Part shown: positions 13,598 through 40,667 of the stretch, piece after piece
Numbering within the stretch: the first letter of the stretch is position 1
Layout of the letters: every line of letters starts with the position of its first letter
From: a virus
Virus genome (UHGV): UHGV-1472163
Direction: 5' to 3' (one strand)
Length of the DNA: 40,843 bases
Notes under the pieces: model-generated
Seen by the model: only the letters and a program-made list of their open reading frames with translations
The model's database searches: none
What the model was told of the DNA's origin: nothing
Made by a program: the position numbers and the translations under genes

Positions 13598-13979
13598 GCA
13601 ACAACAGCAAGCCGCAATCAACGCCATCCTCGCAACACCACTCGATAAAGACAAGCCAGTCACCATCCGCATTACTGACTACAAGCGCAACCTTGACCAG
13701 AACGCAAAATTTCACGTGATGCTGGCGGATATCGCTCGTCAGGTTCAATGGTGCGGCAAATGGTTAAAACCGGAACAATGGAAGGTTTTGTTGATCAGCG
13801 GTCATGCAGTGGCAACAAACCTGGAAGCTGATGTTTTGCCCGGGCTTGAAGGCGAATACGTCAACATTCGCGAAAGCAGCGCGCAGATGAGCGTGAAGCG
13901 CATGGCAAGTCTGATCGAGTACACAACAGCCTGGGCTATTGGTCAGGGTGTCAGATTTACCGACAGGAGGTACGAATGA
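13569..13979 (+). CDS. ninB: NinB recombination protein
   Basis: 136-aa ORF resembling lambda NinB as recalled (TI.ERNRSLDQN.K). Confidence 0.8.
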
Positions 13980-14152
13980 GACGACAGCGACGAAGTATCA
14001 CCGACATAATCTGCGAAAACTGCAAATACCTTCCAACGAAACGCTCCAGAAATAAACCCAAGCCAATCCCAAAAGAATCTGACGTAAAAACCTTCAACTA
14101 CACGGCTCACCTGTGGGATATCCGGTGGCTAAGACATCGTGCGAGGAAATGA
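13976..14152 (+). CDS. ninE: NinE protein
   Basis: Hand-translated 58-aa [61 protein letters not shown], near-identical to lambda NinE as recalled. Confidence 0.75.
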
Positions 14153-14556
14153 CAATGCTTTTAATTCAACCTGGATTTGGCCTTAGCATCAAAAAAGGGC
14201 ACATGTTCGGCGAGAAAGAGTCTCAACGAAAAATGGTGTCTATCCGGTTGCCATTTATCAGTATTTATTGGCTAAACAGGGAGGCAACAAATTATTGGTA
14301 TACATGCGCCAGAGCAGCATTTAACGACCCTGAGTGGTTTGTAGAAAACCATCACGCTGTTCGTCAGGCAAAGAGAAAGGCCGAAACGACATACATGAAG
14401 GCGTATCGAAAAGCATGGAAAGAACACAGCGATCGATACCAACAAGACATGGAAAAGCTTGAATCAGAAAACATGGAATTAAGACGAAAGCTTGGTGAAG
14501 CAAAACGAGATATTGATGCTTACAAGCGACTTTTTAATGGTGAAAGCCATGCTTAG
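14149..14556 (+). CDS. Hypothetical nin-region protein (135 aa)
   Basis: In-frame Met13 of track ORF 14113..14556; ATGA overlap with ninE stop. Confidence 0.5.
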
Positions 14557-30759: not shown

Positions 30760-32103
30760 ATGGCTACGTGGCAACAGGGTATTAATTCTGGTGGTTTTCT
30801 GGCTGGCATTGGTACGCAAAATGAGAATGCACCAAAGGCAAGCGACATTAACGCAACGCTTGGTCTGATTCGCGAAAACAATGAACTGGCTCGATCAGGT
30901 GCAAATAACGTTGGTCTGACCGCGTTACGTGGTCTGGCTGGAGTTGCTGATATTTATAAGCAGGAACAGCAACAGAAAGCGATTAGTGCGTTCAATAAGG
31001 TTCACGCTGATGCATGGGCTTCTGGTGATCCATCGGGACTATTTAAGTTTGCCCAGGAAAATCCAGCGTTTGTTGCACAGGCACAACAGGCATTTTCCGG
31101 TCTTAATGAGCAGCAACGCAACGATATGGGCGATTTAGCCATGAGGGCTAACGTCGCTCTTTCTCAGGGACCGGAAGCCTACAGTAAATTCATTACTGAT
31201 AACAAGGACAGGTTAAATCGCGTGGGGGCGAATGCTGACTGGATGATTCAGACAGGTATTCAGAATCCAGAGCAGCTATCACACATGCTGACTACTATGT
31301 CTCTCGGTGCACTTGGGCCAGAAAAGGCGTTTGCTGTTCAGGACAAGATAGCTGGTCGTGAAATTGAGAAAGGGCGATTGGATGAAAGCATCCGTCAGGC
31401 TGACATGGAGAACGAGAGAGGATGGGCAAATATCCAGAACGCTCAACTAGACAGGGCTCAGCGGGCACAAATGCACTCAGATGAGATGGGATTGAAGCTA
31501 ATGGAGCTGGGGCAAAAAGGTAAGCCGTCAGCAGAATTAATTAAGGGATTAAATTCTGACATTACCAATTTTGGTAAAAATTATAACTCTGTCAGAGCGG
31601 CGGCAAACTCTCTGCAAGCCCTTAGCAAGGTAAATACTGGCGCTGCCCAACTTGGGATTATCTTTAATTACATGAAGTCTCTCGACCCTCAGTCAGTTGT
31701 TCGCGAAGGTGAACAGGTTCAGGTTATGCGCTCTGATGGCATATGGGGGCAGATAAAAGGATATGTAGACCAGCTTAATGCAGGGAATGGCTTGTCACAG
31801 GAAGCGAGGGATAACATTGTTAACGCAGCAAAAATTAACGCCAACGCTATGGGGCAGCAGTTTAACCAGCAGGTAGACGAATATCTGGATACGTATGGAG
31901 ATACTATTCCTCAGGGGCTGAAAAAAAGCTTAGGGAGAAGGAAGGCCAAGCTATTTGACGATGTCCCAGCGCAGCCTACACCACAAGGTGGTAATGGGCA
32001 GACAAAAGCTGCGCCAAGTGGGATATCAGAAGGCGCGACGGCAACGAACCCTAAAACTGGTCAGAAACTCATTTACAGGAACGGACAATGGCAACCGATG
32101 TAG
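30760..32103 (+). CDS. Ejection protein (P22 gp20-like)
   Basis: 447-aa ORF; position-based. Confidence 0.65.
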
Positions 32104-34211
32104 GTTTACCCGAAGGCTTTGTTCTCGATAATCAGCCTGATAACTCACAGCTTCCTGATGGCTTTGTGCTTGATGCCCAACCAGAACAGCAGCAATCTCC
32201 TTTGGTTTCACCAGAGGAAAATTCCAGACAGGAAAATGTTGTTAATAATGCTAACGGCTTCGACCGTTTTATGTATGGCGTTCTCAGTGGATTGATGGAT
32301 GTTGGTAAAGGTGTTGGCCTGTTTCAGGATATGACACCAGAAGAGCAAGCCGCAATTCAGTCTCTACAGCAGAAGTTAGCGGCAAAACCATCAACCGCAC
32401 AAGATGTTGGTGAGTTTGTTGGACAAGCCGCGCCATTTGTTAGTGGTGGTGGGATTATTTCTCAGGTTCCGAAAGGGGCGGCAAGGCTGGCTGCCGCCGC
32501 AGGGCTTGGTGCTGGAGAAGGGGCTATTGTAGCCAATGGAACAAATAGCGATGTTGCTTCCGGCGCTGCTATTGGCGCTGTGGCTGGCCCTGTAGCCGAG
32601 ATTGTTGGTCCAGCGCTTGGGAAGATTGCAGGAAAAATTAAAAATAGTGCCGGGGATATTTATCGCTCATCCGTAGGGATGGGGAGTAAATCATCTAAAG
32701 CAACGTTAAAGAAAGCTGCTGGCGCAATGGATAATAAATTTATTGGCGGGCAACGAGCTATTCAAGGTTTCGCCGATGAAGTTAATCCTGATTTTAACGC
32801 GATAAATGCCATCCGTGAGCTAGAACTGGAAAATTATGCCACTCCAGGAATGATCTCTAATAATCCTGCTGTCAGGGCTCTTGATAATGCAGTGGCAAGT
32901 CTTCCTGGAACAGAGATTAGTGAGGCGCATAAGCGCTTTATTACTGAATTAGGAAGAAAAGCTGATGAAATGATAACTTCATTTGGGGGAAACCTTGATA
33001 AGCAACTGGTTTCTGACAGGCTTGCAGATAATTTTGATAAAACCATTTCATCATTACAAAATCAGTCAGATAACATCTACAACAAAATTGCCGAAAAGGT
33101 TCCAGTAAGAGACCGTATTGAGGCAACCAATACATTGAATTTTTTAGAGGATTTTGCTGATGACATAGGTGGAATTGATGAATTATCTCCAATAATGAAG
33201 CGGACATTGAACCGACTTGATCCAAACACCTTGCCAACGTATGGGCGTTTAGATCTCGCCAGAAAGCAGGTTGGGCAAGCTATTGGCAAAGGCTCTGGCC
33301 CATTCAAGGATGAAGAAACAGGTGTTCTTAAAAAGTTATATGCAGCTATAACAGATGACCAACAGGCTGTCGCAGAAAAATATGGCGCAGGGGAGTTATG
33401 GACGCTTGGTAAGGAGTTGGTAAAAAAACGAAAATCCATTGAAGATGATGCCGTAACCGTTTTGGGTAGAAAACTTCAGCAATCAGCAATTCCAAAAGTT
33501 GAAAGTGCCGTTGTTAATATGGCAAAAGGAAACGGTGGTGACTTTAGGCAATTAATGAAGTCAATTCCAAAGGATATGCGGCAGGAAGTTGTGCTCACCT
33601 CAATGAATAAAGCATTTACCAGCTATGCTAAATCACCAGGTCAGCAATTAGGGGTTGATGGATTTGTAAAATGGTATAACGGAATATCACGCAATGGGGC
33701 CAATATGAAGACTCTCCGTGATGCTATTGGCACAGATGCATCAAAGCGCCTTGATACGATTTATCAAGCAGCCAAGGCTATGAATAGACTCAATACTGGT
33801 AAGCAGTATGCTAGCAGCCTTGTGGATCAGCAAGTTAATAACTTTCTGAAGGAAAAGGGTAGTCTAGCAAAAATTTATGGAATAGCCTCAAAAGCTGCTG
33901 CGGCGGAAGGTATTACAAGCTTATCTGGTCTTCCTGGTGTAGGTGCAACAGGGGTGATAACGTCCGCATTGATGTCAGGGAAAACAAGCAGGATAAAGGC
34001 TGCTGATGCTCTACTGTCTTCTCCTGAGTTTAAATCAATGCTATTTCGCCTGCAAAACGCACCAGTAGACAGAGCAGAAGTGAGACGCGCAATAGAAAGG
34101 AAACTGATGCAATCTGGGGCATTTAAGAGATGGGAGAAAACCCTATCAACAGATGAAGCAAAAACCATTGCCCGCACGGGGATTATTACATGGCTCGCTA
34201 GTGACAGTTAG
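32088..34211 (+). CDS. Ejection protein (P22 gp16-like)
   Basis: 707-aa ORF; position-based. Confidence 0.65.
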
Positions 34212-34435
34212 TCAACTTTGGTTATTTTGCCTTCTTTTTCTTGATGAACTTTGCATCCATCATCTTTTGATAGCCAAACTAAAAACTTTAAAACCTTAAA
34301 CACAAGTACGGATACTGTAATGAAAGCACCAATTGCAATTATTGCTAGTGAAATTATTTGCATTGGTGCTTTTAATGCAGGGAAAATAGCGTAAATGATC
34401 GCGAAAACAGTAATTATGAGGAACCATCGCTTCAC
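34208..34435 (-). CDS. Hypothetical small membrane protein (about 75 aa, GTG start)
   Basis: Track ORF 34208..34651 trimmed to GTG after AGGAGG; two hydrophobic helices; sieA-like position but much smaller. Confidence 0.4.
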   Translation of the reverse strand: MKRWFLIITVFAIIYAIFPALKAPMQIISLAIIAIGAFITVSVLVFKVLKFLVWLSKDDGCKVHQEKEGKITKVD

Positions 34436-34465
34436 ACCAACCTCCTTAGTTTTGAGCAGGATACC

Positions 34466-34831
34466 ATGAAAAAAGTTAACATTGGAAACGTACCAAAGAT
34501 GCTCGTTCCGCTCTTTGAGAGCGGTACAATTGTGTTTTGTAGAGACTTTCCAGAATGGCAACGCCTGCATCAAAAACTTGGTGTGGACGTGCAGGACTCG
34601 GATGCCAACGGAGCGTCTCATACAATGAGCAGCGAGAATGGTGTTTTGCATGTGATAGGCGTGTTCAATGGCAAACTATCTACTATTGCCCATGAGTGCG
34701 CTCACATGGCATTCGATATCTGCTCAAGGGTCGGTGTTGATGTTGAACCAGGAAGAGCCAATGAGACTTACTGCTACTTAATGAGCAGGCTTGTTGAGTT
34801 CTGCGAGCGACATATCAAAAAGCCGGAGTGA
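34466..34831 (+). CDS. Hypothetical protein with HExxH zinc-metallopeptidase-like motif
   Basis: 121-aa track ORF containing IAHECAHMAFD with downstream Glu (ANETY). Confidence 0.55.
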   Translation: MKKVNIGNVPKMLVPLFESGTIVFCRDFPEWQRLHQKLGVDVQDSDANGASHTMSSENGVLHVIGVFNGKLSTIAHECAHMAFDICSRVGVDVEPGRANETYCYLMSRLVEFCERHIKKPE

Positions 34832-34844
34832 CCCGGCTTGATTA

Positions 34845-35024
34845 TTACTTTTTGCTGTCTGGAGTTCGCTTATCCAATACCCAGCCATGACCTGGCTTTG
34901 TTGTTGGCGGAAGCCTTTCGTTGTCCTTGACGGTGGCAAAATTGTCTTTCTTACCGCCGCGTGGGCCAACTTCTTGGTATATTCCGCCGTTTTTTCCTGT
35001 GTTTTCACCTGGTTTTTTCGCCAT
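34845..35024 (-). CDS. YjzC-like small protein (59 aa)
   Basis: Track ORF trimmed to MAKKPGENTGKNGGIYQEVGPRGGKKDNFATVKDNERLPPTTKPGHGW...; pattern resembles YjzC-family small proteins as recalled. Confidence 0.45.
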   Translation of the reverse strand: MAKKPGENTGKNGGIYQEVGPRGGKKDNFATVKDNERLPPTTKPGHGWVLDKRTPDSKK

Positions 35025-35109
35025 GATATACCTCAACATACACCCGTTATTGGGCGATTAAATATTGATCTCATTTTATGAGTAGTCAATATGGTCCAAA
35101 AAAGGCAAA

Positions 35110-35137
35110 AATTAACCCACCGTCAGGTGGGTTTTTT
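35110..35137. terminator. Putative bidirectional Rho-independent terminator
   Basis: Stem CCCACC/GGTGGG followed by T6 on + strand; overlaps stop of the Mnt-like gene. Confidence 0.45.
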
Positions 35138-35605: not shown

Positions 35606-35619
35606 ATTTAAGGAGTGGA

Positions 35620-35787
35620 GATGGAAAAAGCAAAAGACATGTATCAACGCAAGGTTCGTTTCCCAGAGGATGTAAGGAAGGCGATTGAAAGAAATGGAGA
35701 AAAAGAGTGTCGACAGTTCAACACGGAACTTATTTATCAATTGAGAAAAGTGTACGGACTGATTGGAGAGAAGAATGCTAGGACATA
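35620..35787 (+). CDS. arc: Arc-like ribbon-helix-helix regulator (55 aa)
   Basis: Hand-translated ORF MEKAKDMYQRKVRFPEDVRKAIERNGEKECRQFNTELIYQLRKVYGLIGEKNART; RHH pattern; first gene of rightward immI-like operon. Confidence 0.6.
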
Positions 35788-35861
35788 AAAATAGTGAAGC
35801 CCGGCAGTGCGCGAACACAAACCGGGCCTCTATGTCAGTAACCGTATGCAAGGAAACTAAC

Positions 35862-36488
35862 ATGAATATTGTAGCAAAATCAGATTACAACTTCCACGGA
35901 GTTGAGTTGGTGCCCACCCGTGATATGCATGGTGTTTGGTTTACATCATCTAATATTGCATCTGCACTTAAATACGCAAATAGTCGTGCAGTAACAATGA
36001 TTTATAACAAGTATAGCGATGAGTTTAGCGCCGGAATGACTCAGGTACTCGAAGTGAGTACCTCAGGAAATTATCGCAAAAAAGTGCGAGTTTTCTCACT
36101 ACGCGGTGCCCACCTAATCGCGATGTTTGCTCGCACTCCGGTAGCCAAAGAGTTCCGCCGCTGGGTGCTGGATATTTTGGATCGGCAGGCAGAATGCTCA
36201 CCGATTGCAAAACAGTTTACTGACGAAGAACTGGTTAATCTCTGCTACTTACAATTGTGGATGGAGAAGAGTCAACAAATGTGCAAACACATCTACCCAG
36301 GAATGAAGCAAATTTGTTCTGAGCTTTCAGGAAGGATTTACGATATCGCATATGAGACTCGCTATATGTCAGAAGAAACCAAGAAATCACTTCTTCGTGA
36401 AATGAAGAATCTTGATACCAACAATTTTGTCGTAAAGAACGCTCAGCCAATGCTGGCAAAACTGCGCGGCGAGGAATGGATTCATTGA
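35862..36488 (+). CDS. ant: Antirepressor with Bro-N/KilA-N-type domain
   Basis: 208-aa ORF from Met34 of track ORF (MNIVAKSDYNFHGVELV...); AAGGAA SD; position after arc as in P22 immI. Confidence 0.7.
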   Translation: MNIVAKSDYNFHGVELVPTRDMHGVWFTSSNIASALKYANSRAVTMIYNKYSDEFSAGMTQVLEVSTSGNYRKKVRVFSLRGAHLIAMFARTPVAKEFRRWVLDILDRQAECSPIAKQFTDEELVNLCYLQLWMEKSQQMCKHIYPGMKQICSELSGRIYDIAYETRYMSEETKKSLLREMKNLDTNNFVVKNAQPMLAKLRGEEWIH

Positions 36489-36576
36489 TTGGTGCGCCGG
36501 ACGGCGCAAAAAGAAAACCGCCAGTGTGCTGCTGGCGGCCTATGTCACACCCTTACTACCACATAAGGAATGCCTA

Positions 36577-37305
36577 ATGACTTTTAAGAATGTAGCAAAC
36601 ATCGGATCCGTTGTCACGGATAAAACCATTGACAGCCAGCGCCTGCTTGAGATGGTAAATCAGGCTCGTAGACAGTGCGGTGAGCCGGAGGTTCGTAATA
36701 ACAAATTCATCGAGAAAATTGAAGATGAATTGGATGGAGAGCACTACACAAAAAGTGTAGTGCAAAAAGCGAACAAAACTTCGATGGTTATCATTGAGAT
36801 GTCAATCAAGCAAGCATTGCGAGTTGCCGCTCGCGAGTCAAAAGCCGTTCGCCGCTCACTGGTAGACCAACTTGAAAGTATGCAAGAAGCGCACATTAAA
36901 AGCGGTAAATCAGCGAGTGGACTTGTTGAGTATCGTCAAGCGCGAACATTGAAAATGACGGTTGAAGCTGTTACCAATCTGTTCGATCTGATGCCAAATC
37001 TTGCGCCTGAGGCAAAGCAGACAGCGGCAGCAAGTATAATCAACCCGCTTGTTGGTTTTAATGCAATACCTCTTCCGGCAATAGAAGAGCATTACTACTC
37101 AGCAGGGGAGGTTGCAGAGCAGCTTGGAGTAACGGCCAACAAGATTGGTCGCATTGCTAACGCAAACAACCTCAAAACTGAGCAGTACGGGAAGTTCTTC
37201 CTGGATAAATCGGCGCATTCCAGCAAACAGGTAGAGGCGTTCCGTTACAATTCTGAAGGCGTTAAAGCACTACAACACCTGCTACATGGCTCAAATGTGG
37301 CGTAA
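36577..37305 (+). CDS. Second antirepressor-like protein (KilAC-like C-terminal domain)
   Basis: 242-aa ORF from Met18 of track ORF (MTFKNVANIGS...); C-terminus YYSAGEVAEQLGVTANKIGRIANANNL... KilAC-like by eye. Confidence 0.55.
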   Translation: MTFKNVANIGSVVTDKTIDSQRLLEMVNQARRQCGEPEVRNNKFIEKIEDELDGEHYTKSVVQKANKTSMVIIEMSIKQALRVAARESKAVRRSLVDQLESMQEAHIKSGKSASGLVEYRQARTLKMTVEAVTNLFDLMPNLAPEAKQTAAASIINPLVGFNAIPLPAIEEHYYSAGEVAEQLGVTANKIGRIANANNLKTEQYGKFFLDKSAHSSKQVEAFRYNSEGVKALQHLLHGSNVA

Positions 37306-37321
37306 CATTTTATAATGAAAA

Positions 37322-37350
37322 CTAAACCCGCTTAATCGCGGGTTTTTTCT
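37322..37350. terminator. Bidirectional Rho-independent terminator
   Basis: AACCCGC-TTAAT-CGCGGGTT hairpin followed by T6; overlaps the convergent stop of the Mnt-like gene. Confidence 0.5.
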
Positions 37351-37589
37351 TTCCTTAGAATTTCAGCCGCAACTTCTTTTACTCGTTCCGAGATTAATGA
37401 GGCCAGCCTCTCTTCTTCATCACGATACCCGCTTACAGGTGATGGTTTGGAGAGTGATTCTTCCATCGTAGCCACAATTTCGGAATTGATAGACCTGTTA
37501 TTCATTTTTGCACGCTGCTTAATCTTAGCGTGCAACTCGTGTGTAAGCCTCAAGTGGAACTGCGCCTCATCGTATTTGCTGTACATCAT
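37332..37589 (-). CDS. mnt: Mnt-like repressor (P22 Mnt type)
   Basis: 85-aa ORF (C-terminal part of track ORF 37332..37985): NNRSINSEIVATMEESLSKPSPVSGYRDEEERLA matches P22 Mnt NGRSMNSELLQIVQDALSKPSPVTGYRNDAERLA as recalled. Confidence 0.7.
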   Translation of the reverse strand: MMYSKYDEAQFHLRLTHELHAKIKQRAKMNNRSINSEIVATMEESLSKPSPVSGYRDEEERLASLISERVKEVAAEILRKEKTRD

Positions 37590-37721
37590 CAATGCCTCAC
37601 CAAATGGGTGGAATGGCATCGTAAAACCTACTGTACAAATCAACAATCGTACCGTTTCGGTATGTAATAAATGCCAACCGTAGCCATGCTGCGGCGATTC
37701 CTTGTATCTGGAGCAAATTAA

Positions 37722-40667
37722 ATGACAGACATTACAGCCAATGTTGTAGTGAGTATGCCTTCGCAACTCTTCACTATGGCGCGTTCTTTTAAAGCCGTAG
37801 CTAATGGCAAAATTTATATCGGTAAAATTGACACTGACCCGGTAAATCCTGAAAACCAGATTCAGGTCTATGTTGAGAACGAAGATGGTTCTCACGTTCC
37901 TGTTTCGCAACCAATCATCATTAACGCCGCTGGATATCCGGTATATAACGGACAGATTGCCAAGTTCGTAACCGTGCAAGGCCATTCTATGGCTGTTTAT
38001 GATGCGTATGGTACACAGCAGTTCTATTTTCCGAATGTGCTGAAGTATGATCCTGATCAGTTACGGCAGCAATTAGAAGACCCAGATGGAGCGAATAAAT
38101 ACCCAAAACTTCAGATAGCAAGATGGAGAGACAGTTATGATGTAAGAGGTTGGGGGGCTATTGGTGATGGTGTTCATGATGATACATCAGCTCTATCAGA
38201 ATTACTTTCTGTTGCAACAGGTGGTGAAAAGATAGATGGGCGAGGGCTTACTTTTAAAGTATCAACTCTTCCAGATGTCAGTCGATTTAAAAATGCTCGT
38301 TTTTTATTTGAGAGAATACCGGGTCAGCCTCTTTTTTATGCTTCTGAAGATTTTATCCAGGGAGAGTTATTTAAAATTACAGATACACCGTGGTACAACG
38401 CCTGGACGCAGGATAAAACGTTTGTATATGACAATGTCATCTATGCGCCTTTTATGGCTGGAGACCGCCATGGTGTAAATAACCTCCATGTTGCATGGGT
38501 TCGCTCAGGAGATGACGGGAAGACCTGGACAACGCCGGAATGGCTTACAGATTTACATGAAAACTATCCCACAGTTAACTATCACTGCATGAGTATGGGG
38601 GTTGTCAGAAATCGCCTTTTTGCTGTAATTGAGACGCGGACCGTGAGCGGAAATAAACTGCAGGTTGCAGAGTTGTGGGATCGCCCAATGAGTCGCAGCC
38701 TTCGCGTTTATGGTGGTATAACGAAAGCAGCAAATCAGCAAGTCGCTTATATTCGCATTACTGATCACGGATTATTTGCTGGTGATTTTGTCAACTTCTC
38801 AAACTCTGGTGTTACAGGTGTTACCGGGAATATGACGGTGACTACTGTTATTGATAAAAATACTTTTACAGTTACGACGCAAAATACCCAGGATGTGGAT
38901 CAGAATAACGAGGGTAGATACTGGAGTTTTGGTACATCATTTCACTCGTCACCATGGAGAAAAACCAGTCTTGGAACTATTCCTTCTTTTGTTGACGGAA
39001 GCACTCCTGTTACTGAGATTCACAGTTTTGCGACGATTAGCGATAACAGTTTTGCTGTTGGCTACCATAATGGTGATATTGGCCCACGCGAGCTTGGGAT
39101 ACTCTATTTCTCTGATGCTTTCGGTTCTCCTGGTAGCTTTGTTCGCAGACGCATACCTGCAGAATATGAGGCGAATGCATCTGAGCCATGTGTAAAATAT
39201 TATGATGGCATTCTGTATCTGACGACCAGGGGGACATTAAGTACTCAACCCGGTAGTTCATTGCACAGAAGCTCTGATTTAGGTACATCATGGAATTCTC
39301 TTCGCTTCCCAAATAATGTTCATCACTCAAACCTTCCTTTTGCCAAAGTTGGCGATGAGCTGATTATTTTTGGCAGTGAGCGCGCATTTGGTGAGTGGGA
39401 AGGAGGAGAACCTGATAACCGTTATGCAGGAAATTATCCAAGAACATTTATGACCAGAGTTAACGTCAATGAGTGGAGTCTGGATAATGTAGAGTGGGTT
39501 AATGTTACTGATCAGATTTATCAGGGCGGAATAGTTAACTCTGCGGTTGGTGTTGGTTCAGTTTGTATCAAAGACAACTGGCTGTACTACATTTTCGGTG
39601 GGGAAGACTTTCTAAACCCATGGAGCATAGGGGATAACAACAGAAAATATCCTTATGTTCACGATGGTCACCCGGCTGATTTGTATTGTTTCAGGGTGAA
39701 AATTAAACAGGAAGAATTTGTTTCAAGGGATTTTGTCTACGGAGCCACTCCTAACAGAACGCTTCCTACTTTTATGTCGACGTCAGGCGTGAGGACGGTT
39801 CCTGTACCCGTTGATTTCACAGATGATGTTGCCGTCCAGTCACTGACTGTCCATGCAGGTACATCAGGACAAGTTCGCGCGGAAGTCAAACTTGAGGGTA
39901 ATTACGCCATTATTGCGAAGAAAGTACCGTCTGATGATGTTACCGCTCAGAGATTAATCGTTAGCGGCGGTGAAACAACGTCTTCAGCAGATGGTGCAAT
40001 GATAACGTTGCATGGTTCCGGAAGCAGTACTCCACGTCGCGCGGTATATAACGCACTCGAACATCTTTTTGAGAACGGAGATGTTAAACCTTATCTTGAT
40101 AATGTAAATGCTCTTGGTGGTCCGGGAAACAGGTTCTCGACAGTTTATCTTGGCTCCAATCCTGTGGTTACCAGTGACGGAACATTAAAGACAGAGCCGG
40201 TCTCTCCTGACGAAGAATTGCTGGATGCCTGGGGTGACGTCAGGTATATCGCTTATAAATGGCTGAACGCTGTCGCTATAAAGGGGGAAGAAGGGGCGAG
40301 GATACATCATGGTGTAATCGCGCAGCAACTTCGTGATGTTCTTATTTCTCACGGACTCATGGAAGAAGAAAGCACAACATGCCGCTATGCCTTTCTTTGC
40401 TATGACGATTATCCCGCAGTATATGATGACGTCATTACTGGCCAAAGGGAAATGCCGCTGACTGATAATGACGGGAGCATCATTGTTGATGAGGATGATA
40501 ATCCAGTGATGGTAATGGAAGACATCATTGAGCGCGTTGAAATAACGCCAGCAGGATCTAGATGGGGGGTCAGACCTGATCTCTTATTCTATATCGAGGC
40601 GGCATGGCAGCGCAGAGAAATAGAAAGAATAAAAGCTAGGTTAGACTTAATAGAAGGGAAGCACTAA
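37722..40667 (+). CDS. Tailspike: P22-type head-binding N-terminus fused to endosialidase-like domain with C-terminal chaperone domain
   Basis: 981-aa ORF; N-terminal about 125 aa match P22 gp9 head-binding domain as recalled; two sialidase Asp-box motifs ([16 protein letters not shown]); C-terminus with SDGTLK Ser-Lys region resembling S74 chaperone domain. Confidence 0.85.

Follow-up and report, generated by a model that had tools for sequence, protein, structure and literature searches.

A sieA-slot cassette, a predicted zincin gene and a YjzC-family gene between gene 16 and the immI-like region of a P22-like phage

The trio and its identity with P22 and HK620

The DNA analysed here, UHGV virus genome UHGV-1472163 (40,843 nucleotides (nt), called the window at its full length), is that of a P22-like (Lederbergvirus-type) Escherichia coli phage or prophage, and our subject is the trio of small genes at 34208-35024, between the gene for a gp16-like ejection protein and the immI-like region. 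These are a gene for a membrane protein of 75 amino acids (aa), hkcC, which encodes a 121-aa protein with an HExxH motif, and orf59a, which encodes a 59-aa protein of the YjzC family. An earlier reading of the bare sequence (the sequence-only reading) had described these three open reading frames (ORFs), all of which are present, and had taken them as one uncharacterised unit. The features of the trio are as follows.

34208-34435, minus strand: gene for the 75-aa protein, a predicted two-helix inner-membrane protein (phrog_7294); an ORF-only cassette in the sieA/hkcB slot
34433-34465, minus strand: GTG start (34433-34435), Shine-Dalgarno sequence GGAGG and leader, common with P22 sieA; left edge of the P22-conserved module
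34466-34496, minus strand: position of the annotated P22 PsieA promoter, inside hkcC codons 1-10 (P22-pbi 13861-13891, mapped by alignment)
34466-34831, plus strand: hkcC, gene for a 121-aa, predicted soluble, minimal zincin-like protein
34691-34705, plus strand: codons for H76-E77-C78-A79-H80 (HExxH), of which H76, E77 and H80 are invariant in 85 members of the family
34763-34765, plus strand: codon for E100, which opens helix 3 within G-x-A-N-E-T-x-C; invariant, predicted third metal ligand
34820-34839: hairpin common to the 3' ends of hkcC and orf59a ('tORF59A' of HK620, 't mnt' of P22), including the hkcC codons K-P-E-stop
34845-35024, minus strand: orf59a, gene for a 59-aa basic, all-beta YjzC-family protein
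35061-35089, minus strand: promoter-like TTGACT-17-AATATT, 36 nt upstream of the orf59a ATG
35114-35133: 3' terminator of the Mnt-like gene, intrinsic and bidirectional; ~90 nt past the start of orf59a and stronger than the hairpin at 34820-34839

The interval from gene 16 to gene 9 is the 'ant moron' of P22-like phages (Villafane 2008, PMC2629481). From 34433 to ~35139 the window has ~98% nucleotide identity with P22 and ~60 other phage records (megablast), the homology to P22 beginning exactly at the GTG start codon of the 75-aa gene and ending just past the terminator at 35114-35133. P22 encodes orf59a and a 121-aa ORF that is 100% identical to the HExxH protein of the window, and the HK620 record AF335538 (Clark 2001) holds the same genes under the names hkcC and possible HkcD, with hkcB in the slot to their left. 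The window has hkcC and orf59a in the same order and orientation as P22 and HK620, with the same hairpin and upstream leader, and its Orf59a shows 98% identity. What differs is the gene in the slot, which encodes a 75-aa hairpin protein here, SieA (164 aa) in P22 and HkcB (109 aa) in HK620, and the immI part to the right of orf59a, which is another variant than that of P22 (a 124-aa Mnt-like protein, an Arc-like protein, a Bro-N/P22_AR_C antirepressor and a second ribbon-helix-helix gene). Since P22 itself has hkcC and orf59a as a conserved module, only the 75-aa gene replaces sieA; the claim of the sequence-only reading that the trio lies where P22 carries sieA thus holds for that gene and fails for the other two. 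The most parsimonious interpretation, and on balance the one we favour, is that the trio region is the left part of a P22-type ant moron, made up of three units that evolve and exchange separately and not of one.

On the other side, the region is dispensable in nature: it is missing altogether from Sf6, and neither L nor ST64T has hkcC at this position (PMC2629481, PMC8022706). The genes hkcC and orf59a are present in ~6% of complete E. coli genomes (319 of 5426). Carriage on plasmids was considered and rejected, all eight plasmid matches looking like phage-plasmids or prophage DNA. Both genes have been listed, as 'hkcC, 59a', among the P22 ant-moron genes of unknown function (PMC2629481), and the P22 reference records BK000583/NC_002371.2 have no coding sequence (CDS) for hkcC at 13861-14223, where they give only the features 'sieA promoter' and 'mnt terminator'. 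In the original P22 record, AF217253, the HkcC protein match at 37336-37698 is only 72%, probably through sequencing errors, and this may explain in part why the CDS was omitted from the reference records.

The trio had also been described as bounded by a bidirectional terminator. The structure at 35114-35133 is of that kind, while the hairpin inside the trio at 34820-34839 (-12.6 kcal/mol) has a good U-tract leftward only and a weak one rightward. The conserved C-terminus of the hkcC clade (KKPE or KKPA; 34817-34831 in the window) coincides with the left arm of this hairpin, and conservation of the protein at its C-terminus may partly reflect a constraint on RNA structure.

The sieA/hkcB slot and its 75-aa occupant

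The 75-aa gene starts with GTG, 5 nt past the GGAGG Shine-Dalgarno sequence, and its stop overlaps the stop of the gp16-like gene. Its product has hydrophobic segments at about residues 4-21 and 27-54, which hydropathy scores as two transmembrane segments, followed by a Lys-rich C-terminal tail, so that the two-helix membrane protein described from the bare sequence is borne out. The window and P22 are identical through taaggaggttggtGTG, and the slot proteins diverge from codon 2. To see what else the slot holds, we extracted the divergent upstream gene from 80 IMG/VR loci whose hkcC was at least 99% identical. The slot gene in these loci fell into 11 unrelated families of 62-164 aa, all of which have an N-terminal transmembrane segment, a signal peptide or a lipobox; they match nine different PHROGs, among which SieA is the sole named one, and a 149-aa cassette matches none. 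In all loci with another cassette, the ungapped match to the window breaks down at a point 18-37 nt upstream of the hkcC ATG. Because identity to P22 runs through the GTG, after which the proteins diverge, the cassettes appear to be swapped as bare ORFs behind a fixed leader, ribosome-binding site and start codon, and the junction between unrelated sieA-slot cassettes, as seen in the comparison of 34433-34465 with P22, lies at the initiation codon.

In the case of P22, the function of the slot gene is known. SieA is an exclusion protein that targets gp16 and gp20, and sieA with 85 base pairs (bp) of upstream DNA suffices for exclusion (Leavitt et al., PMC10883804). The 75-aa gene matches that of SieA types A-C (PMC10883804) in genomic slot and orientation, and likewise in its upstream region, Shine-Dalgarno sequence and start codon; both products are predicted inner-membrane proteins, SieA with 3-4 transmembrane helices and the 75-aa protein with two. 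It can be hypothesized that the 75-aa protein is a helical hairpin of the inner membrane with both termini in the cytoplasm, that it would be expressed from the prophage by way of the signals that serve sieA in P22 (promoter region, ribosome-binding site and GTG), and that its most likely job would be an envelope function of the superinfection-exclusion type, stopping DNA delivery by incoming P22-like phages. This role is plausible by position only.

Several observations count against it. In sequence the 75-aa protein does not resemble SieA: the FxRYPxEAxxFNK motif is missing, and the protein falls in phrog_7294, not in SieA's phrog_7745. PADLOC gave no match for it, nor for HkcC, Orf59a, SieA or two other slot cassettes. 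The consensus promoter scan did not detect the annotated PsieA, and among copies of the 75-aa gene 6 polymorphic codons change the amino acid against 3 that are synonymous. It is therefore worth weighing whether the protein does something other than block injection; it might bring about lysogenic conversion, modulate a host membrane protein, or act as a small membrane toxin or an anti-holin-like factor. Such a function would suit a protein without homology to SieA or to any defence model, from a narrow, ORFan-like family, and the ten other unrelated cassettes of the slot include lipoproteins and secreted proteins, which need not all be exclusion factors. On the other side, SieA, the one slot protein that has been characterised, is an exclusion factor directed at gp16 and gp20 (PMC10883804), gene 16 is the immediate neighbour of the slot, and the 75-aa cassette was found only with one C-terminal type of gp16 (8 of 8 loci).

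Small inner-membrane proteins with two transmembrane segments, such as T4 Imm and HK97 gp15, block DNA entry. The 75-aa protein resembles them in its size (~75-85 aa), its two-segment hairpin and its expected expression from a prophage or moron, and no homology between them was detected. Taken together, a function other than exclusion is possible and we regard it as the less probable course. Copies of the cassette, 84-99% identical, come from E. coli and Salmonella alone, and none of the sources has a name for it. A strict coupling of cassette type to gp16 type was considered and rejected, as the P22-type gp16 accompanies five cassettes.

HkcC, Orf59a and their convergent pairing

Our reading of HkcC begins with its family. 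A search with the full hidden Markov model gave 526 clusters at E<=1e-3, nearly all of 110-130 aa, where a word-indexed homology search had given only 32 close relatives. In an alignment of 85 members (23-73% identity) the sole invariant columns are H76, E77, H80 and E100, which bears out the HExxH motif and downstream Glu pointed out by the sequence-only reading. Among 79 near-identical copies of hkcC, 24 polymorphic codons are synonymous only and 3 change the amino acid, so that the gene is under purifying selection. The AlphaFold2 model (predicted local distance difference test score (pLDDT) 88.6) has the order beta-beta-alpha-beta-beta-alpha-alpha, with four beta strands before the two motif helices, HExxH on helix 2 (71-88) and E100 at the beginning of helix 3 (100-116). 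The sequence-only reading had allowed that its HExxH match might be fortuitous, with no zinc-binding fold predicted, and this is contradicted both by the invariance of the motif and by the zincin-like predicted fold.

Placing the family among named zincins is less direct. HkcC itself has no Pfam match, Peptidase_M78 and SprT-like included; among the 85 relatives 15 match SprT-like (PF10263) at E<=0.1, with a best E of 1e-4, which is sub-threshold support and not membership, and none matches Peptidase_M78 or WLM at that cut-off. NCBIfam yielded nothing relevant. Sequence profile searches of the PDB with close and broad HkcC alignments returned nothing significant, although the weak matches were all zincins but one, and a thermolysin match spans HExxH and E166. 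By fold, Foldseek found nothing for HkcC in the PDB at E<1e-3; the match of highest probability was SPRTN 6mdx (E=0.14, probability 0.51, TM-score 0.31), and no IrrE or ImmA was among the PDB fold matches. The BFVD gave 24 fold matches among phage proteins at E<1e-3, mostly with TM-scores of 0.55-0.82. The named ones are 'SprT-like' (E 1.6e-4 and 3.7e-4, TM-score 0.55-0.67) and, just above the 1e-3 cut-off, 'Metalloprotease', and proteins named 'IrrE' follow at ranks 37 and 41 (E 0.025-0.044, TM-score 0.20-0.41). Of the families that the sequence-only reading had named for comparison with the 121-aa protein, ImmA/IrrE and WLM thus gave no support, and SprT-like is the nearest named one without reaching threshold. 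That every Pfam and PDB link of HkcC to zincins is sub-threshold tells against the assignment.

Like the SprT-like/Spartan/Wss1 zincins (PF10263), HkcC has its HExxH helix after a small beta sheet. The third metal ligand of SprT and Spartan is a His, in contrast to the invariant candidate Glu100 of HkcC, and the HkcC family differs further in standing alone at 110-130 aa, in its confinement to phages and in the absence of an accessory Zn-ribbon or DNA-binding domain. With the thermolysin-type gluzincins HkcC shares HExxH and, 20 residues on, an invariant Glu after Asn ('ANET') at the start of the next helix, so that its G-x-A-N-E-T parallels the NExxSD motif of thermolysin. Both motifs fall within a weak profile alignment to residues 134-179 of thermolysin (E ~1.6, not significant), and HkcC has one-third the size of thermolysin and lacks its C-terminal helical domain. 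On this sequence and model evidence, HkcC is best described as a distinct, phage-restricted minimal zincin, closest to SprT-like proteins, with Glu as its predicted third ligand, and not as a member of ImmA/IrrE. It would be a soluble cytoplasmic zinc metallopeptidase-like protein of ~13.6 kDa that acts on some protein substrate in the infected cell, with H76 and H80 as metal ligands, E77 as general base and E100 as third ligand.

The surroundings of the family hint at when such a protein might be made. We surveyed the context of 60 distinct members, in which 91.6% of the flanking coding bases were co-oriented with the hkcC-family gene, the majority being co-oriented in 58 loci. A P22-type portal gene lay downstream in 29 of the 60 and an Rz-like gene upstream in 21, and about half of the members stand between the lysis genes and terS/terL/portal, Pfam confirming lysozyme and Rz on the upstream side and terS, terL and portal on the downstream side. 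In P22-likes the hkcC clade proper follows the ejection genes, and elsewhere it is found within tail operons of siphoviruses. A dedicated hkcC promoter was sought and rejected, as none is conserved and the conserved 30-nt leader is too short. Polymerase initiated at PLate transcribes through the ant moron into tailspike gene 9 (PMC2629481). Because hkcC has no promoter of its own and reads in the orientation of the late operon, and because transcription from PLate crosses the moron, we infer that HkcC is probably made late in infection, hkcC being expressed in lytic growth by read-through from PLate. Set against this is the hairpin at 35114-35133, which is a strong rightward terminator, and late read-through would need gp23 antitermination to pass it.

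Many P22-like phages carry a second HkcC-family paralogue, and some have both copies. This is Orf129 of ST64T and ST160, ~38% identical to HkcC and situated between the lysis genes (gene 15) and terS (gene 3), at 22883-23272 of NC_014900.1 in ST160. No second paralogue was found in the window.

Orf59a presents a different picture. It was called YjzC-like from the bare sequence, and the name stands, at a score below the gathering cut-off for Pfam YjzC (PF14168; 19.4 bits against 25, E=1.3e-3); its close homologues are named 'YjzC family' in UniRef, and more distant ones (E 1e-6 to 5e-4) carry PF14168. It shares 'KPG', 'GxYxExGPRGG' and 'LPPT' with the PF14168 proteins at 44-53% identity, and the phage clade differs from them in a distinct C-terminus, 'W..(K)RTPDSKK'. 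The YjzC family has no known function. A three-stranded beta domain is predicted (pLDDT 86), and the Orf59a profile matched nothing in the PDB. Over 66 copies, 12 polymorphic codons are synonymous and 3 are replacements; orf59a is under purifying selection. The promoter-like site upstream, TTGACT-17-AATATT, is unremarkable on its own. In 5 of 6 diverged loci, siphovirus contexts among them, both hexamers nevertheless keep their positions, although the spacer varies. orf59a is a classical moron: it has a conserved promoter of its own and a leftward terminator, and some relatives lack it or carry it disrupted. The same cannot be said of hkcC, which has no promoter of its own. Lying antisense to the late operon, orf59a would presumably be expressed in the lysogen. 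The gene is disrupted in HK620 (stop at codon 18) and in two IMG/VR contigs (frameshift), and the adjoining hkcC is intact and identical in all three.

Among 203 HkcC-family loci collected, Orf59a was present in 103, and where both occur it is always convergent with the HkcC-family gene, 6-25 bp from it, with a shared hairpin. The convergent pair occurs in P22-likes of Escherichia, Salmonella and Morganella, in the tail operons of Rosenbergiella and Klebsiella siphoviruses, flanked by tube/YdaY genes on one side and the tape-measure gene on the other, and after a Xenorhabdus lysis cassette. An HkcC of ~60% identity goes with an Orf59a of ~78-81%, and one of 41-45% with an Orf59a of 55-66%; in Xenorhabdus, an HkcC-family partner of 24% identity (46 bits) stands beside an Orf59a that is 76% identical. 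This recurrence of the convergent pair across contexts, together with its parallel divergence, suggests a functional module, and a refinement of the interpretation given above can be put forth in which HkcC and Orf59a form one module split by phase of the life cycle, either as an effector with a self-immunity protease or as a protease with a small inhibitor.

The two genes lie on opposite strands, with a conserved promoter for orf59a alone, and a phage-derived metzincin with an inhibitor-like partner offers a precedent (PMC8235301), both of which speak for such a split, as does the persistence of a very divergent HkcC partner beside Orf59a in Xenorhabdus. Against it, about half of the collected family loci, including the Orf129 paralogue clade, have no Orf59a at all, orf59a is missing beside hkcC in some P22-like loci (the right boundary being at +363 or +385 in 13 of them), and Orf59a-like genes also occur without HkcC. 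The intact hkcC beside a disrupted orf59a in HK620 and the two IMG/VR contigs points the same way, and the linkage could simply be that of a compact mobile unit sharing one terminator. We hold the split module to be a tentative proposal, and somewhat unlikely as it stands.

Its fullest form is more speculative still. This would be an unrecognised two-gene module in which a YjzC-family protein is expressed in the lysogen, and a minimal zincin made only late destroys its YjzC partner or is restrained by it. If true, a prophage effector or defence factor with a protease-based self-immunity switch could result, the pair would have moved as a unit into at least 3 late-operon positions in podo- and siphoviruses, and there would be a first function for the YjzC family and for a family of phage mini-zincins, at least 526 clusters strong, that Pfam does not contain. 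Literature searches gave no functional study of hkcC/orf59a, YjzC, SprT-like phage proteases or phage zincin anti-defence, and the iScience set of P22 deletions has none of hkcC or orf59a.

Two neighbourhoods of the pair deserve record. In Logan metagenome contigs with a 43%-identical pair, a gene for a second, unrelated putative metallopeptidase (212 aa, PF18894 'PhageMetallopep') lies ~200 nt beyond orf59a. In the prophage of Xenorhabdus hominickii the pair follows a cassette of holin, lysozyme and Rz; a Tad2-like (anti-Thoeris-type) gene lies within a few kilobases upstream of the holin and, in one of the two loci, an N6_N4 methyltransferase gene as well, so that this neighbourhood may be one of accessory or counter-defence genes.

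Other readings of HkcC and the meaning of the locus

Granted that HkcC is zincin-like, a more specific role can be envisioned in which it is a DNA-associated protease of the SprT/Spartan kind, stripping bound or cross-linked proteins off replicated phage DNA before packaging by terminase. Its nearest named relatives are SprT-like, SPRTN gives the most probable of its PDB fold matches, and for roughly half of the distinct members the terS, terL and portal genes follow just downstream. However, the similarity to SprT is sub-threshold, the candidate third ligand is Glu and not the His of SprT/Spartan, and the 121 residues, with a net charge of -2, hold no extra DNA- or zinc-binding domain. Moreover, the hkcC clade itself lies far from the terminase genes, and the sites upstream of terS are also general hot spots for morons. 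We consider this role improbable.

The other proposal involves the genes around the trio, which are as follows.

30760-32103: gene for a gp20 homologue (Inj_translocase)
32088-34211, plus strand: gene for the gp16-like ejection protein, 707 aa; without a Pfam match, follows the gp20 gene, in synteny with HK620/P22
35123-35497, minus strand: gene for a 124-aa, Mnt-like ribbon-helix-helix protein of the Arc/Mnt family, at the start of the immI-like region
35615-35788, plus strand: gene for a 57-aa Arc-like protein, a ribbon-helix-helix gene of the immI-like region
35763-36488: gene for a Bro-N/P22_AR_C antirepressor, immI-like region
36526-37305: 259-aa ORF without a Pfam match, immI-like region
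37332-37589, minus strand: second Mnt-like ribbon-helix-helix gene, 85 aa, divergent from the tailspike gene
37722-40667, plus strand: gene for a CUS-3-type endosialidase tailspike, with a P22 head-binding domain, endo-N domains and a Peptidase_S74 chaperone

The immI-like region thus has three ribbon-helix-helix genes, and the 124-aa Mnt-like protein has a long C-terminal extension. Rfam at its gathering threshold matched no family in the whole window, sar RNA included.

With these repressor genes in view, the sequence-only reading had suggested, without assigning it, that the HExxH protein is an ImmA-like antirepressor protease or serves in exclusion. In the first case HkcC would be an ImmA/IrrE-like protease (Peptidase_M78, PF06114, COG2856) that cleaves the Mnt-like or Arc-like repressors and acts in prophage induction. 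The appeal of the idea is that ImmA/IrrE proteins likewise have an HExxH-type motif with a downstream Glu in a mobile element, and that a gene of the Arc/Mnt family is only ~300 bp away from hkcC in this window. The comparison ends there, as neither HkcC nor any of the 85 relatives matches Peptidase_M78 and the IrrE-named matches in the BFVD are poor (E>0.02, TM-score 0.2-0.4). ImmA/IrrE folds are mostly helical, and in the HkcC model four beta strands come before the motif helices. In HK620 hkcC persists, 100% identical, with no mnt, arc or ant beyond remnants of mnt and ant, and the siphovirus, Xenorhabdus and lysis-terminase contexts of the family have no adjacent repressor. Furthermore, since hkcC is promoterless and reads with the late operon, it would be made after, and not before, the decision to induce; late expression of this kind, together with retention in HK620, counts against a protease acting as antirepressor at the stage of induction. 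The proposed link to the repressors is accordingly very improbable.

The notion that the HExxH is fortuitous or that the 121-aa ORF is not a gene, which could appeal to the missing CDS in BK000583 and NC_002371.2 (for which the 72% match in AF217253 may help to account) and to the overlap of the ORF with the annotated PsieA and a terminator, is effectively refuted by the excess of synonymous over amino-acid-changing codons, the 526 clusters with H/E/H/E as their sole invariant residues and the confident fold prediction.

Previously, hkcC and orf59a had been catalogued without a function, and what is added here is a family assignment, the hypothesis of a pair, and an architecture in which a cassette slot stands beside a probable late-operon zincin and an autonomous YjzC moron. 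Current understanding of immI regulation is unchanged by it. P22 is one of the best-studied phages, and these two are among the last of its genes still without an assignment; placing hkcC in a large, phage-restricted family of minimal zincins is a testable biochemical hypothesis, which also corrects annotations that omit the CDS. The sieA slot, for its part, with its at least 11 unrelated envelope proteins, offers a ready catalogue of candidate factors for superinfection exclusion and lysogenic conversion, as well as a natural expression site for the engineering of P22-like phages.

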